A program made the position numbers and the translations under genes. DNA of 29,706 nucleotides from NCBI GenBank assembly GCA_031256695.1, contig JAIRQB010000079.1, positions 1-29,706 on the forward strand, read 5' to 3'. Position 1 is the stretch's first letter; the number at the start of each line of letters is the position of its first letter. This DNA is from Elusimicrobiota bacterium. GTDB lineage: Bacteria; Elusimicrobiota; Endomicrobiia; Endomicrobiales; Endomicrobiaceae. This document shows positions 2,993 through 27,455 of this stretch, piece after piece. The notes beneath the pieces are model-generated. The model saw nothing but the letters and a program-made list of their open reading frames with translations, searched no databases and was not told the DNA's origin.

Positions 2993-5788
2993 ATGGAAGA
3001 AAATAAAAAAGATTATTCAAAAACAGTCAATTTGCCGAAAACTGATTTTCAGATGAAGGCAAATTTGCCGCAAAGAGAGCCTGCTTTAGTTGAAGAGTGG
3101 GAAAAGAATAAAGTTTATCAGCAAATATGCGAAAAGAATAAAGATAAAGAAAAGTTCATTTTCCACGATGGTCCCCCATATGCCAATGGGCATATACATA
3201 TAGGAACTGCCCTAAACAGAATTCTAAAAGACATCATCATCAAATACCGCTCAATGTCAGGGTATTTTGTTCCCTATATACCGGGCTGGGATTGTCACGG
3301 GCTTCCAATAGAACAGCGCGCTTTAAAAGAGTTAAAAACCGATAAAAACAGAGTTGATAAACTCTTATTCCGCAAGCAAGCGGCTGATTTTGCGCGGAAA
3401 TTTTCTGAGATACAGAAAAGCGAATTCAAAAGACTCGGAACTTTTGCCGATTGGGACAATCCTTATCTGACATTACAGCCTAAATTTGAATACTCAATAA
3501 TAAAAGTTTTCGCTTCTCTTGTAGAGCAAGGCTTTGTCTACCGTAAAAATAAAGCGGTCTATTGGTGTCCAACTTGCGAAACTGCTTTGGCTGATGCGGA
3601 AGTGGAATATGACAATCACAAATCAACATCAATCTACGCCAAATTTCAAATAATATCTCTGCCTCAAAGCGCCCCCGCCTTTTTAAAAGATAAAGAAAAT
3701 GAATTGAAAAATTTCAGCGTTCTAATTTGGACTACTACCCCTTGGACATTGCCTGCAAATACGGGTTTGGCTTTTAGCCCGGAGGCAAATTATATTGCCA
3801 CTGTTTTTGATTGCAATGGACGCAGTGAAAATTTAGTAATTGCTAAACCTTTGCTTGAAAATGTCAGCCAAAAAATAGGAGCGCAATCGTTTAAAATTCT
3901 TTTTGAGGCAAAAGGCAAAGACTTTTTAGATATTTGTTGTAAAAATCCTCTTGTGGATACAAAATCCCGCTGTGTTTTAGCGGATTTTGTCAGTATGGAG
4001 GACGGCAGCGGCATAGTGCATATAGCGCCGGGGCACGGACAAGAGGATTATGCTGTAGGCATAGAATATGGTTTGGATATTCTCTCTCCCGTAAATGACA
4101 AAGGATTATTTACAAAGGAAGTTCCTGAATTTGAAAATATAAATGTCTTTAAGGCTACTCAACTCATAGTTGATAAACTCGTCAAAGAAGGCAAAATCCT
4201 TGCCGTTATAGAATTGGAGCATTCTTATCCGCATTGCTGGCGTTGCAAAAAACCGATTATTTTTAGGGCTACTCCTCAATGGTTTGTAAGCATAGACTGC
4301 AATAATTTGAGAGTAAAACTTTTAGACGAAGTAAAAAAAGTCAACTGGATACCTAAATACGGACAGAATAGAATAGGCGGTATGCTTGAGAGCAGACCTG
4401 ATTGGTGTATAAGCCGTCAAAGGCTGTGGGGCGTCCCGATACCGATTTTTTATTGCAAAGATTGCGGAGAACCTCTTGTAGATTTAAAGGTAATTGACCG
4501 CATAGCGGATATTTTTGGCGAGAAAGGCTCTGACGCTTGGGTAGAGATGAGCGAAGATGAATTGTTAAAAGGCATTGATGTCAAATGTCTCTCTTGCGGC
4601 AAAAGTAATTTCAGAAAAGAAAGCGATATTTTAGACGTATGGTTTGATTCAGGCTCTTCTCAAGAGGCTGTTTTATCAAGCGGAAAATATAAAGACCAAA
4701 GTTTTCCCGCAGATTTATATTTAGAAGGCAGCGACCAGCACCGCGGCTGGTTTCATACATCAATAATTTTATCTGTCGCGCAAAAAGGCATAGCGCCTTA
4801 TAAAAATGTTTTAACGCACGGCTTTGTCGTAGACGGTCAAGGCAAAAAAATGTCTAAATCTTCGGGCAATGGAATAGAGAGCGAAGAGTTGATAAAGCAA
4901 TACGGCGCAGACATTGTCCGTTTTTGGACGGCTTCTTCAGATTATAGAGAGGATATAAGAATCTCAACAGAGATTTTAAAAGGACTTAGCGACGGATATA
5001 GAAAAATCAGAAATACAATCAGGTTTATGCTCGGCAATTTGAGCGGTTTTGACATATCAAAAAAAATAGACTTCAAAGATATGCAAGATATAGATAAATA
5101 TGCTTTAAGCCGTCTAAATATCTTAATTGCCCAAGCGGACGCCTCTTATAAAAATTATGAATTCCATAAAATTACGACTTTAATAAATAACTTTTGCGCC
5201 GTTTTTTTGAGCGGCTTTTATCTTGACGCTTTAAAAGACATACTCTATTGCGATAAAACAGACGGCAAAGCGCGTCTTAGCGCTCAAGCGTCTATGTTTG
5301 AAATAACTTCTTGCCTCGTAAAAATTTTATCGCCTATACTTTCTTTTACAGCAGAAGAAGCCTGGAAAGAAATCTCTAAAATAGCGGGGAAAGATTTTAA
5401 ATCCGTGTTTTTGCAAGATATGCCTGTTGCAAATCCAAAATGCATTTTGCCGCCCGAGCAAGAGCAAATATGGGAAAAACTTCTCTCTATTAGAGAAAAA
5501 GTTTTAGAAAGCAATGAAAAATTGCGGCAGGATAAAATTATAGGGTCAAATTTGGAAAGCGCCTTAGAAATTAAATACGGCGCAGATTTTAAAGAAGTTT
5601 TTGATAATGCCGCTTTATTGAATTTAGTTTTAGGGACTTGGGATATAAAATCCTCTTTTGACGCTTCTCAAAATAGTTTTACCGTTTCGTCTGCAAAAAC
5701 ATCTCATCAAAAATGTTTAAGGTGTTGGCGGCATTTAGAAGATATATGCGGCGGATTATGCCCGCGTTGCCGCGAAGCGCTCAAATAA
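2993..5788 (+). CDS. ileS: Isoleucine--tRNA ligase (bacterial type 1)
   Basis: DGPPYANG, HIGT (HIGH variant), WTTTPWT, WCISRQR, EGSDQHRGWF, KMSKS, C-terminal Zn finger CLRC...CPRC. Confidence 0.98.
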   Translation: MEENKKDYSKTVNLPKTDFQMKANLPQREPALVEEWEKNKVYQQICEKNKDKEKFIFHDGPPYANGHIHIGTALNRILKDIIIKYRSMSGYFVPYIPGWDCHGLPIEQRALKELKTDKNRVDKLLFRKQAADFARKFSEIQKSEFKRLGTFADWDNPYLTLQPKFEYSIIKVFASLVEQGFVYRKNKAVYWCPTCETALADAEVEYDNHKSTSIYAKFQIISLPQSAPAFLKDKENELKNFSVLIWTTTPWTLPANTGLAFSPEANYIATVFDCNGRSENLVIAKPLLENVSQKIGAQSFKILFEAKGKDFLDICCKNPLVDTKSRCVLADFVSMEDGSGIVHIAPGHGQEDYAVGIEYGLDILSPVNDKGLFTKEVPEFENINVFKATQLIVDKLVKEGKILAVIELEHSYPHCWRCKKPIIFRATPQWFVSIDCNNLRVKLLDEVKKVNWIPKYGQNRIGGMLESRPDWCISRQRLWGVPIPIFYCKDCGEPLVDLKVIDRIADIFGEKGSDAWVEMSEDELLKGIDVKCLSCGKSNFRKESDILDVWFDSGSSQEAVLSSGKYKDQSFPADLYLEGSDQHRGWFHTSIILSVAQKGIAPYKNVLTHGFVVDGQGKKMSKSSGNGIESEELIKQYGADIVRFWTASSDYREDIRISTEILKGLSDGYRKIRNTIRFMLGNLSGFDISKKIDFKDMQDIDKYALSRLNILIAQADASYKNYEFHKITTLINNFCAVFLSGFYLDALKDILYCDKTDGKARLSAQASMFEITSCLVKILSPILSFTAEEAWKEISKIAGKDFKSVFLQDMPVANPKCILPPEQEQIWEKLLSIREKVLESNEKLRQDKIIGSNLESALEIKYGADFKEVFDNAALLNLVLGTWDIKSSFDASQNSFTVSSAKTSHQKCLRCWRHLEDICGGLCPRCREALK

Positions 5789-10906: not shown

Positions 10907-11053
10907 AAGAGTTATTTGGCGGCGTTTTTTGCCGACTTTATTTCTTGATGTCGGCTTGCTGACAAATTACTCAAGAGTTGTTTGGTGGCGCGGTAGCGCC
11001 GCCAAATTACTCAAGAGTTGTTTGGCAGCGTTTTACGCTGACAAATTACTCAA
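10907..11053 (+). repeat. Tandem array of three hairpin modules (GAGTTRTTTGG...CAAATTACTC) joined by AA
   Basis: Modules at 10909-10972 (64 nt, with a nested 25-bp hairpin), 10975-11012 (38 nt) and 11015-11051 (37 nt), each flanked by AA. Confidence 0.9.
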
Positions 11054-11060
11054 TTAACTT

Positions 11061-11973
11061 TTAATTCTCTATCCTGTCATAAACCAACACTTTTGCGCCG
11101 TAAATATCTTTTGTAAAAGACTGCTTATATTTATCAGATATGTATGTCTCTTTATCATTGGGGTCTATCAAAACATACAATCTTTTAAAAACGGCATTTT
11201 CTAAATCTTCTTGGGCTGCAAATAATACAGGAGTTTTTGCTCCCTTTTGCGAAACATAATAATTTGCAAATACTTTCAAGCCCGCTCCTCTTGTTTTATT
11301 TCTTTTGCTGTCCCAAATAGGCATTCTTATAAAAACAGCCGTTCCTTTATCATAAATATCTTTTTGCGCTATAAGATAATTAGCCCAGTCTTTATACGGT
11401 CCGTCGGGGATATAACGGCTGCGGTTATTTTCGTCAACTTTTATTAGAGTATTAAAGAAAAGAAAAAAGGCAAGGCAGACAATAATAATTGATTTTGCCG
11501 TCATATCTTTGCGGCATAAAAAATCAATGCATTTTATAGCGGAAAAAGCGCAAAGCAAATAAAAATAAGGCAATAATGTAAATAAATACCTATCAACCCA
11601 CAGAGACGCTTGATTTATTCCAAAAGATATTTTGCTGTATTCAAATAAGGCAAAAACAACAAAGACAATCGTCCATAAAATAATAGTTAAAAGACTAAAG
11701 CGCCAATTTATTCGTTTTTTAGACAGAATTTTTTTAAACAAAAACACAATCAGTATAGAGGCGGCAAAAAGGAAAAGAGACGGGTTCTCTCATTGACATC
11801 GTTGCTCTTGCCATATCCATAAAAGGAGCGCTGACCCAAAACAAAGAGCCTATTTCGTCAAACCAAAACCCTTTCATACCGGCATAATTAAGCATAATTG
11901 CAAACATCAAAAGCGATATGAAAAACATAATAATATGAGTCGGCGCGCAAAATTCTTTTGCTCTCTTAATCAT
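11061..11973 (-). pseudogene. Split, shortened GT-C (ArnT/PMT-like) membrane glycosyltransferase
   Basis: 5' piece (11973-11734) has a TM helix and GFWFDE. The 3' frame opens after TGA 11792-11790 and runs to 11061 with TM helices and DRY. Combined ~300 aa. Start overlaps the purB stop (ATGA). Confidence 0.62.
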
Positions 11974-23242: not shown

Positions 23243-24439
23243 TCAGTCTTTTATTGTCCTTTCAAATCTGTCTAAACCTTCTTTTATATTGTCCATACTT
23301 GTAGCGTAAGAAAATCTCACATAGCCGTCAGCGCCGAAAGGCGAGCCCGGGACAATGGCAATCTTTGCCTCTTCAAGCATTAAATCTGCAAAATCCATAT
23401 CTGTATTTATTTTTTTGCCTTTAATAGTTTTGCCTAAAAACTCTTTTATATTTGGAAAAACATAAAAAGCGCCTTGCGGCTTTTGACAAGAAATGCCTTT
23501 TATAGCCAGAAGCCTCTCTAAAATATAATTTCTGCGTTTTTCAAATTCAACCCTCATCATTTCTACGCTGTCTTGAGGACCGTTTAAAGCCTCAACTGCG
23601 GCTTTTAGAGAAATAGAAGTCGGATTTGAAGTGGATTGGCTTTGAACTTTAGACATACCTGCAATAATTTCTTTATTGCCTGCCGCAAAACCTATGCGCC
23701 AGCCCGTCATAGAATAAGCCTTTGAAAGCCCATTGACAACTATTGTTTTTTCTTTGATTTTAGGGGATAGAGAAGCGACTGAGGTGAATTTGAAGCCGTC
23801 ATAGACGAGTTTTTCATAAATATCGTCTGCGATAATTAAAATATCTTTTTCTAAACAAATATCCGCTATTTCTTGCAATTCTGCGGCAGTATAGGCGGCG
23901 CCTGTGGGGTTTGACGGCGAATTTATAATTATTGCTTTTGTCTTTTCTGTAACAGCCTCTTTTATTTGTTTGGCATTTACTTTAAAACCGCTTTTATCGT
24001 CTGCTGAAACTATAATGGGTTTGCCGCCCGCTATAATTACCATATCGGGATAAGACACCCAGAAAGGAGCGGGTATTATGACCTCGTCTCCGTCGTCTAT
24101 AATTGTTTGAAGCAAATTATAAATGCTGTGTTTTGCCCCGCAAGAGACAAGTATTTCATTTTGAGCGTATTGCAAATTATTGTCTCTTTCAAACTTTTTA
24201 ATGACAGCGTCTTTTAATTCAGGCGTTCCGCCTACGGGGCAATACTTTGTATATCCGTTAATTATGGCGTGAATGCCTGCATTTTTGATATTTGAAGGCG
24301 TATCAAAATCCGGCTCGCCGGGGGCAAAGTTTAAAATGTCAACACCCTGTTGTTTTAAAGTTTTTGCCTTTGCATCTATTACAAGAGTAGGAGAAGGCTT
24401 AATTGCCGCTACTCTTTTGGAAATCAATTTTGTGTTCAT
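23243..24439 (-). CDS. aspC: Class I PLP-dependent (aspartate) aminotransferase
   Basis: GEPDF, NSPSNPTG, DDIY, SKAYSMTGWRIG, GAFY, VRFSY; RBS AGGAGG. Confidence 0.93.
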   Translation of the reverse strand: MNTKLISKRVAAIKPSPTLVIDAKAKTLKQQGVDILNFAPGEPDFDTPSNIKNAGIHAIINGYTKYCPVGGTPELKDAVIKKFERDNNLQYAQNEILVSCGAKHSIYNLLQTIIDDGDEVIIPAPFWVSYPDMVIIAGGKPIIVSADDKSGFKVNAKQIKEAVTEKTKAIIINSPSNPTGAAYTAAELQEIADICLEKDILIIADDIYEKLVYDGFKFTSVASLSPKIKEKTIVVNGLSKAYSMTGWRIGFAAGNKEIIAGMSKVQSQSTSNPTSISLKAAVEALNGPQDSVEMMRVEFEKRRNYILERLLAIKGISCQKPQGAFYVFPNIKEFLGKTIKGKKINTDMDFADLMLEEAKIAIVPGSPFGADGYVRFSYATSMDNIKEGLDRFERTIKD

Positions 24440-24467
24440 ACTACCTCCTTTTTGATTGCAAGTCCTT

Positions 24468-24847
24468 CGCTCTTACCTTCAAAAATTTCGGGCGCCGCAT
24501 TTGCGGCTGAAATTTTTGAGATTAAGGAATCGGCAAAACTTCAACACGGCTTTCAGTTTTGCCTCTTTTTTATTTAAGACTGCTTACGCTTTTTGCCACA
24601 CTCACGCCCGCTCTTACCTTCAAAAATTTCTGGCGCCGCATTTGCGGCTGAAATTTTTGAGATTAAGGAATCGCAAAACCTTGCGGACAAGCCGCTGTCG
24701 GTTTTGCTCTTTTTTATTAAGCGTTATTTGCGGCGCATTGCCGACTTTACTTCTTGGTGTCGGCTGCCGACTTTACTTCTTGGTGTCGGCTGCGCCGACA
24801 AATTACGCAAGACTGCTTACGCTTTTTGCCACACTCACGCCCGCTCT
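24468..24847. repeat. Mosaic 141-bp-period tandem duplication with an inserted hairpin module
   Basis: A: 24468-24532 vs 24609-24673 (64/65 identical). B: 24576-24614 = 24809-24847 (39/39). Hairpin plus T tract at 24532-24575 and 24673-24718. Module 24721-24808 carries two 25-bp hairpins. Confidence 0.92.
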
Positions 24848-27417: not shown

Positions 27418-27455
27418 TTGAATTATTTGTCAATGCCGGCATTGCCAAATAACTC
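27418..27455 (-). repeat. Single reverse copy of the GAGTTATTTGG hairpin module
   Basis: Minus strand reads GAGTTATTTGGCAATGCCGGCATTGACAAATAATTC AA. Confidence 0.8.

Follow-up and report, generated by a model that had tools for sequence, protein, structure and literature searches.

How does a hairpin of 25 nucleotides come to sit, alone or in tandem, in the loop of a larger palindrome, and by which route has it spread through a genome? The question is raised by two loci of the window, that is, the whole stretch of 29,706 nucleotides analysed here, which is contig C92 of a draft assembly (G000; 1.52 Mb in 251 contigs, 38% G+C, 83.6% complete). The locus is present in termite-gut and symbiont metagenome runs (runs X1-X4). 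Neighbours of the RecJ protein of this genome come mostly from Spirochaetota, a lead towards that phylum. A dedicated transposase has been implicated in the multiplication of REP sequences; for the spread of other very small bacterial repeats (20-30 nt) we know of no account. An earlier note on this DNA had viewed the hairpin as an element that targets, or expands within, the loop of another element.

The unit, GCCGAC-N13-GTCGGC, is found at positions 10931-10955, 24740-24764 and 24766-24790, as the earlier note had it, which makes three occurrences in the window against 0.01 expected from window shuffles. Both units at 24.7 kb are identical to the family consensus, and the one at 10.9 kb departs from it at two of its 25 positions, both in the loop, in agreement with the 23/25 identity first given between the loci. 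The T described on each side of the hairpin is present at all three copies and turns out to be nearly invariant genome-wide, preceding 91 of 92 units and following 91 of 92. A Hamming scan of the genome returned 99 units with at most 7 mismatches, among them 92 with at most 6 and 34 identical to the consensus, while the shuffled genome gave one match (at 7 mismatches) and the reversed pattern none. These 99 units form 71 arrays, of one (50 arrays), two (15), three (5) or four units (1). Sixty-seven of the 71 contain units with at most 6 mismatches; they are called good arrays below and were used for the nesting counts. Arrays are intergenic, except for two inside doubtful long ORFs. Features of the window are collected in the table.

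Table. Hairpin units, host palindromes and related features of the window (strand: +, -, or a dot for unstranded features)
Feature	Positions	Strand	Remarks
Type-A host, arms GAGTTATTTG / CAAATTACTC, one unit	10909..10972 (64 nt)	+	inner stem degenerate; composite fold -11.5 kcal/mol, z -5.5
Single hairpin unit with two flanking T, older copy	10930..10956	+	stem GCCGAC/GTCGGC, 13-nt loop; folds as DNA, -6 kcal/mol, z -5.7
Empty type-A module, 38 nt	10975..11012	+	loop GGTA
Empty type-A module, 37 nt	11015..11051	+	loop TTTTA
Repeat mosaic of 388 nt between aspC and dctQ	24453..24840	.	two type-B cassettes and an occupied type-A module; missing as a block from a ~1% divergent strain
Proximal type-B palindrome (24479-24519), empty, with promoter-like motif	24455..24519	-	TTGAAG 24477-24482, 16-nt spacer, TGCAAT 24455-24460
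Distal type-B palindrome (TCAAAAATTTC ... GAAATTTTTGA), empty	24620..24660	-	type B holds 1-4 units at other loci
Type-A host, GCGT-headed variant, two units	24721..24808 (88 nt)	+	fold -28.3 kcal/mol, z -8.4
Tandem pair of identical consensus units	24739..24791	+	direct repeat, period 26, T-hairpin-T-hairpin-T
Divergent empty type-A-like module	27420..27455	.	

The distribution of the family is narrow. Hairpin and type-A module, its host in the window, are both absent from the 40 relatives searched, and a looser hairpin pattern that accepts any loop was found in none of 88 other genomes of the family. An exact-pattern scan gave one stray match in about 185,000 species genomes and none in metagenome contigs. 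Abundant in its genome, the hairpin with its T is restricted to a single uncultured lineage of the termite gut. Its loop is conserved to the same degree as its stem, with variation mostly at positions 7, 10, 11 and 13, and this gives it the look of a young or homogenised family. The sole compensatory stem change, C6:G20 to G:C, is carried by five E-type copies and probably goes back to one event; with this one compensatory pair, covariation in the stem makes no strong case that structure has been selected. Rfam returned no match in the window at gathering thresholds, and a riboswitch or other Rfam reading was rejected on that ground.

The host palindromes are more varied than the window alone suggests. 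All three copies of the window lie inside a type-A palindrome with arms GAGTWRTTTG / CAAAYWACTC, in line with the claim that the hairpin always sits in the loop of a larger element, and the same holds across the genome, where at least 61 of the 67 good arrays are centred in a larger inverted repeat, as judged by host class or flank-pairing score. A majority of free-standing copies with random flanks is not seen: the other six arrays are for the most part degenerate or imperfectly nested, and one, a diverged unit with 4 mismatches (C60:672-696, minus strand), lies directly 3' of a tRNA gene, outside any palindrome. At least five unrelated host types (A-E) can be distinguished, with sharp 25/26-nt unit boundaries in each. 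Type B reads TCAAAAATTYY ... GAAWTTTTTGA and encloses a small inner hairpin followed by one to four units; type C is a long palindrome around CGCAGAC / GTCTGCG; type D has a leader CTTCTGTYTTTAYAAGAG, then GGCGCATT-hairpin-TGCGCC; and type E, ...CGTCGGCTT-hairpin-TTGCCGAYG..., carries the stem-variant hairpin. In A and D hosts the hairpin has the constant flanks GCG(C/T)ATT ... T(G/A)CGC.

Type A offers the best view of empty and filled hosts, since the genome contains 90 such modules, 58 of them empty and 32 occupied. The interiors of occupied modules measure 43, 69 or 95 nt, that is, 17 + n x 26. Excision of 26 nt per unit was held to restore an empty module, and this is so for length (64 to 38 nt for the first locus; 88 minus 52, or 36 nt, for the second) but not for sequence, as the residual loop that would be left, ATT or ATTT, is found in none of the 58 empty modules. 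Likewise, the range of 0, 1 or 2 copies per module is accurate for the window but too narrow for the genome, where a type-A module has three units and another host four. Occupied modules display 16 inner-stem variants, nine of which are also seen empty, and the hairpin is found in both orientations with respect to the asymmetry of the host arms (16 to 5). When the two-unit host of the window is folded as single-stranded DNA, two hairpins stand side by side within the outer stem. Two occupied type-A modules lie in long ORFs, at L034 (C38):1345-2565, beyond the GT2 domain of a glycosyltransferase, and at L033 (C244):75-1946, ahead of a GT9 domain; they may have been inserted in frame, in the manner of Rickettsia RPEs, or the frames may read through them by chance.

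AAAAGTT heptamer tracts make up the outermost tier. There are 88 tracts of at least 3 units in the genome (e.g. C182:2290-2420 and C201:1747-1900), and such a tract is no more than 25 nt away from 15 of 64 type-A clusters but from only 0.46% of the genome, an enrichment of about 50-fold. Modules sit inside such tracts in two strain comparisons.

Are the empty loops targets for the hairpin, or has it been copied along with its hosts? Loop subfamilies bear on this point. The canonical loop TTTACTTCTTGGT is carried by 37 of 44 units in A hosts versus 1 of 18 in B hosts, which have instead TTTGATACTTGGT and relatives. In B hosts, moreover, the hairpin is preceded by the reverse complement of its own first 10 nt, which the G at hairpin position 10 fits. 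Three arrays mix subfamilies (C239, C6 and C46), one B host (C8) has an A-type unit, and one A host has both types. The constant flanks, the lack of a residual loop in all 58 empty modules, the tracking of host by subfamily and the fit within B hosts together argue against 32 independent clean insertions into the present empty loops. That the unit has sharp 25/26-nt boundaries in the centre of no fewer than five unrelated palindromes argues for some apex-directed entry. The mixed arrays and the A-type unit in a B host require that the bare 25/26-nt unit was transferred, as would happen if it inserted like an element or if hairpins converted one another; taken with the 16 stem variants, the two orientations and the boundaries common to five hosts, this means that movement or conversion of the bare unit has occurred on at least a few occasions. 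Overall, the data are better accounted for by co-propagation or gene conversion with the host, plus slippage, than by free transposition.

Type-B hosts have a further peculiarity. Their right arm leads into TTGAAG, which is separated by 16-17 nt from a TACAAT-like hexamer, and an RBS and an ATG come next; this architecture recurs at no fewer than 11 loci. The cassette is upstream of, and co-oriented with, recA, glutamate dehydrogenase (gdh), DctP (dctP), yajQ, cupin, mannitol dehydrogenase and aspC genes, and examples beyond the window are at L028 (C235), L024 (C6), L019 (C201), L020 (C46), L001 (C8) and L009 (C84). In the window, the proximal cassette is followed by an RBS and by the ATG of aspC at 24439. 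A simple promoter consensus scan matched TTGAAG-16-TACAAT in one type-B copy (the paralogue in L028). Type-B arrays are all in one orientation, and some 11 nt lie between their end and the putative -35 box downstream. Judging from these motifs, type B would be a repeated promoter cassette and may be a 'mobile promoter'; the hairpin, being near the putative -35 box, could have an effect on expression there.

Comparison of strains reveals how the arrays change. It relied on Logan contigs from four runs and two studies and on contigs of JGI sample 3300041968; the strain of runs X2-X4 is about 1% divergent from G000 (120 differences in 12.7 kb), and all strain differences are, for want of an outgroup, unpolarised as gain versus loss. 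Upstream of yajQ, G000 has one unit and the sister contig L041 three, with near-identical flanks and a difference of 52 nt. In that sister strain yajQ is called as two ORFs of 41 and 105 aa (L041:258-754) and may be frameshifted. Private variants are common to the units of one array in C16, C205, C212 and C235, and in C205 they are staggered over the three units, which is how slippage or unequal exchange would leave them. The hairpin does expand within the loop, in 26-nt steps, and so this half of the original proposal stands; the other half, the targeting of loops, is plausible but unproven. In six orthologous comparisons, no difference of zero versus one unit within a conserved host was found.

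Larger changes are equally apparent. In contigs of runs X2, X3 and X4, only 14 nt separate 24452 from 24841, and the whole mosaic is thus absent there. The dctQ-aspC region is seen in three states in three strains: no palindrome (X2-X4), one type-B cassette with a different interior (L042), and two cassettes with an occupied type-A module (G000). The block 24453-24840 is bounded by AGAGCG direct repeats. Downstream of a TonB-receptor gene, G000 has two occupied type-A modules where the sister strain has heptamers only, and downstream of a ygiQ-like gene it has three type-A modules (one occupied) in an AAAAGTT tract that is uninterrupted in the sister strain. At the D-type locus (C145:12570-12800 versus L045:1729-1958), the two strains have a common leader (AAAGA..CTTCTGTTTT..), after which G000 continues with GGCGCATT-hairpin-TGCGCC and the sister strain with a perfect hairpin of 20-bp stem; the D-type hairpin 'cassette' appears to have been exchanged between strains. 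Strains thus differ by 26-nt quanta of copy number, by the gain or loss of entire mosaics as blocks, and by exchange of palindrome centres. An X2 contig has its first 531 nt unaligned to the window upstream of 11766 (11235-11765, with a 228-aa ORF next to the 10.9-kb locus), this segment being replaced or strongly diverged. Contigs also break at the 10.9-kb locus, so that within the window the strain comparison of arrays covers the 24.7-kb locus. The sister-strain Logan contigs L035-L039 stop at repeats, 30-70 nt from the flanking genes, and are uninformative on copy number; L043 and L046 end before the arrays and yield no occupancy data. In the draft assembly, 19 of the 67 good arrays are within 300 nt of a contig end, which implies that the assembly breaks at repeats and that the true number of units is higher.

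On balance we favour, as the somewhat more probable reading, a lineage-specific miniature palindromic repeat of the REP or small-dispersed-repeat kind, spread with its host palindrome or by conversion and then subject to copy-number steps of 26 nt. It forms the innermost of three tiers, with AAAAGTT tracts containing 37-38-nt palindromic modules (or other palindromes) that bear the hairpin at their apex. Changes of copy number in 26-nt steps would most simply come from replication slippage or unequal exchange between tandem units. Within a host family, the hairpin would have spread mainly by being copied together with the host palindrome; alternatively, gene conversion between host copies could have carried along the constant flanks (N-ATT ... 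T-N'). To get into a further host family, the hairpin would depend on a rare event directed at the apex, such as insertion or templated repair at the tip of an extruded hairpin.

Other explanations deserve to be weighed against this one. The hairpin could be an active non-autonomous transposon, among the smallest known, which a trans-acting enzyme (e.g. an HUH/Y1 protein of RAYT or IS200/IS605 type) would insert into the single-stranded T-rich loops of extruded palindromes, arrays being in part the outcome of repeated insertion. Sharp boundaries and invariant T flanks in unrelated hosts, the 34 identical copies, the two orientations, the mixed arrays and the A-type unit in one type-B host are what such an element would leave, and there are precedents: REPs lie inside palindromes and REPINs insert into REPINs (PMC3733652, PMC3116915), and REPs are specific insertion targets (Tobes and Pareja, PMC1525189). 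Yet profiles PF01797 (Y1/HUH, including RAYT), PF01609 (DDE_Tnp_1), PF01548 (IS110) and PF01385 (OrfB_IS605/TnpB), each of which matched control genomes, had no match in the 83.6% complete assembly. The GTAG or CGTC tag is absent too, as are residual loops in empty modules and, in the six orthologous comparisons, any zero-versus-one polymorphism, and the strong tie between subfamily and host type is unexpected under free transposition from master copies, so that we see active transposition as possible but rather unlikely. Because the assembly is 84% complete and broken at repeats, a mobilising gene could be missing from it. The only rve-type (DDE integrase/transposase) ORF that it contains, at C214:~3021-3971, was rejected as mobiliser, its flanks being unlike the hairpin and the module arms. 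An empty type-A module is found about 130 nt downstream of this ORF, with no shared ends seen. Spread could also do without any transposase: the palindrome tip would be cut, for instance by an SbcCD-type nuclease, and repaired from a hairpin-bearing palindrome, so that the hairpin 'homes' and then expands by slippage, with copy-number changes in type B acting as a strain-variable promoter modulator. We regard this scheme as unlikely.

A selected functional site is harder still to sustain and, in our view, quite improbable. The hairpin would then be a symmetric site for a dimeric DNA-binding protein, or a DNA or RNA structural element, whose copy number upstream of the type-B promoter tunes expression like a contingency repeat. 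It is true that type-B arrays keep one orientation and a fixed place, ending about 11 nt before the TTGAAG-16/17-TACAAT-like motif that precedes recA, gdh, dctP, yajQ and other genes, that copy number varies between strains at one such putative promoter (yajQ), and that the loop is conserved, with one compensatory stem change in E-type copies. But most copies (type A), which lie between genes or at 3' ends, take either orientation relative to genes (about 11 sense to 17 antisense); the stem lacks a T-run behind it, Rfam is empty for the window at gathering thresholds, and loop conservation is equally explained by the youth of the family. Absence of the hairpin from all 88 other genomes of the family further indicates that its function, if any, is not a conserved one. 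In the favoured reading, the hairpin is more likely to be structural DNA, selfish or neutral, than a dedicated regulator. Mis-assembly of a metagenome bin, finally, is scarcely credible as the source of the repeats or of their copy numbers. The MAG is fragmented into 251 contigs, which often end in repeats, but Logan contigs from four runs and two studies show depth peaks at the repeats, another JGI sample has the same units and hosts, and units lie in unique flanks at more than 60 loci.

The lineage is a compact case: a small genome in which no hairpin transposase was detected, three nested tiers, many empty and filled hosts, and strain polymorphisms (one versus three units; mosaics present or absent). 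It could be used to set transposase-dependent against repair- or replication-based spread. In this termite-gut symbiont of reduced genome, turnover is much faster in intergenic regions than in genes: the genes on either side are about 99% identical where the mosaics differ. Such turnover matters for strain typing of these genomes and for their assembly, since contigs break at repeats.

Where does the hairpin stand among known systems? Like a REP, it is a short, extragenic, high-copy palindrome of 20-40 nt (a 25-nt hairpin in 92 units). It cannot be assigned to GTAG-tagged REPs, as GTAG/CTAC is neither in nor beside the unit, which has T on either side, nor to CGTC-tagged ones, including those of the Rickettsia RPE type, as the consensus ends in TGTCGGC and CGTC occurs only in the E-type flank. 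RAYT-linked REPs were set aside with PF01797 unmatched in the 83.6% complete assembly. REPIN doublets do not apply either: units are direct tandems spaced by 1 nt, and a partial inverted copy lies upstream only in type-B hosts. MITEs have terminal inverted repeats, a target-site duplication of at least 2 nt and a length of about 50-500 nt; the unit has 25-26 nt, 6-nt arms and a single T on each side, common to adjoining tandem units. An intrinsic terminator does not fit a stem followed by T, then by G, A or T and host sequence, without a T-run, and a CRISPR array does not fit units that abut 1-2 nt apart.

Closer parallels exist with composite repeats. BIMEs of enterobacteria are intergenic mosaics of palindromic units and other motifs, in which the units stand side by side. 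Here too, several short repeat families form ordered and strain-variable intergenic mosaics, but nesting of one tier in another's loop takes the place of juxtaposition, and there is no relation in sequence. The small dispersed repeats (SDRs) and the STRR heptamers of Nostocaceae, on which Elhai et al. reportedly wrote in 2008, are of interest in this respect, SDRs being said to measure about 20-27 nt, to be thought mobile, to nest in other repeats and to be linked to heptamer tracts. Going by that description, they and the present units would have in common a very small size, a variable tandem copy number, nesting and a link to heptamers (here in 15 of 64 clusters), whereas the phylum is different and the sequence unrelated. 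PMC2884548 describes small dispersed repeats of about 20 bp that are tandem, variable in copy number and possibly mobile.

The nearest match for the nesting itself comes from A. variabilis (GTAG-15), T. roseum (GTAG-23) and H. neapolitanus (CGTC-1), three species whose REPs are inserted in palindromes; for two of them unlinked target palindromes were not found (Di Nocera et al. 2013, PMC3733652). In both cases a short, high-copy extragenic palindrome is centred in a larger palindromic repeat, and the pairing of inner and outer repeats is family-specific. The present system differs by the lack of a GTAG/CGTC tag, by abundant empty hosts (58 of 90), by at least five host types, by the absence of a RAYT among the genes found, and by units in spacerless tandem arrays of one to four. 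REPINs, inverted REP doublets served by a single-copy RAYT gene, include clusters that arose when one REPIN inserted within or beside another (Bertels and Rainey 2011, PMC3116915). They resemble the present units as hairpin-forming extragenic repeats with tandem clusters, REPINs reaching hundreds of near-identical copies, but here the tandems are direct, with a period of 26, and a Y1 transposase gene was not detected. The hairpin works like the nested REP and SDR kind, and we see in it no new kind of system but a new, lineage-restricted example of the very small nested repeats of bacteria, themselves little understood.
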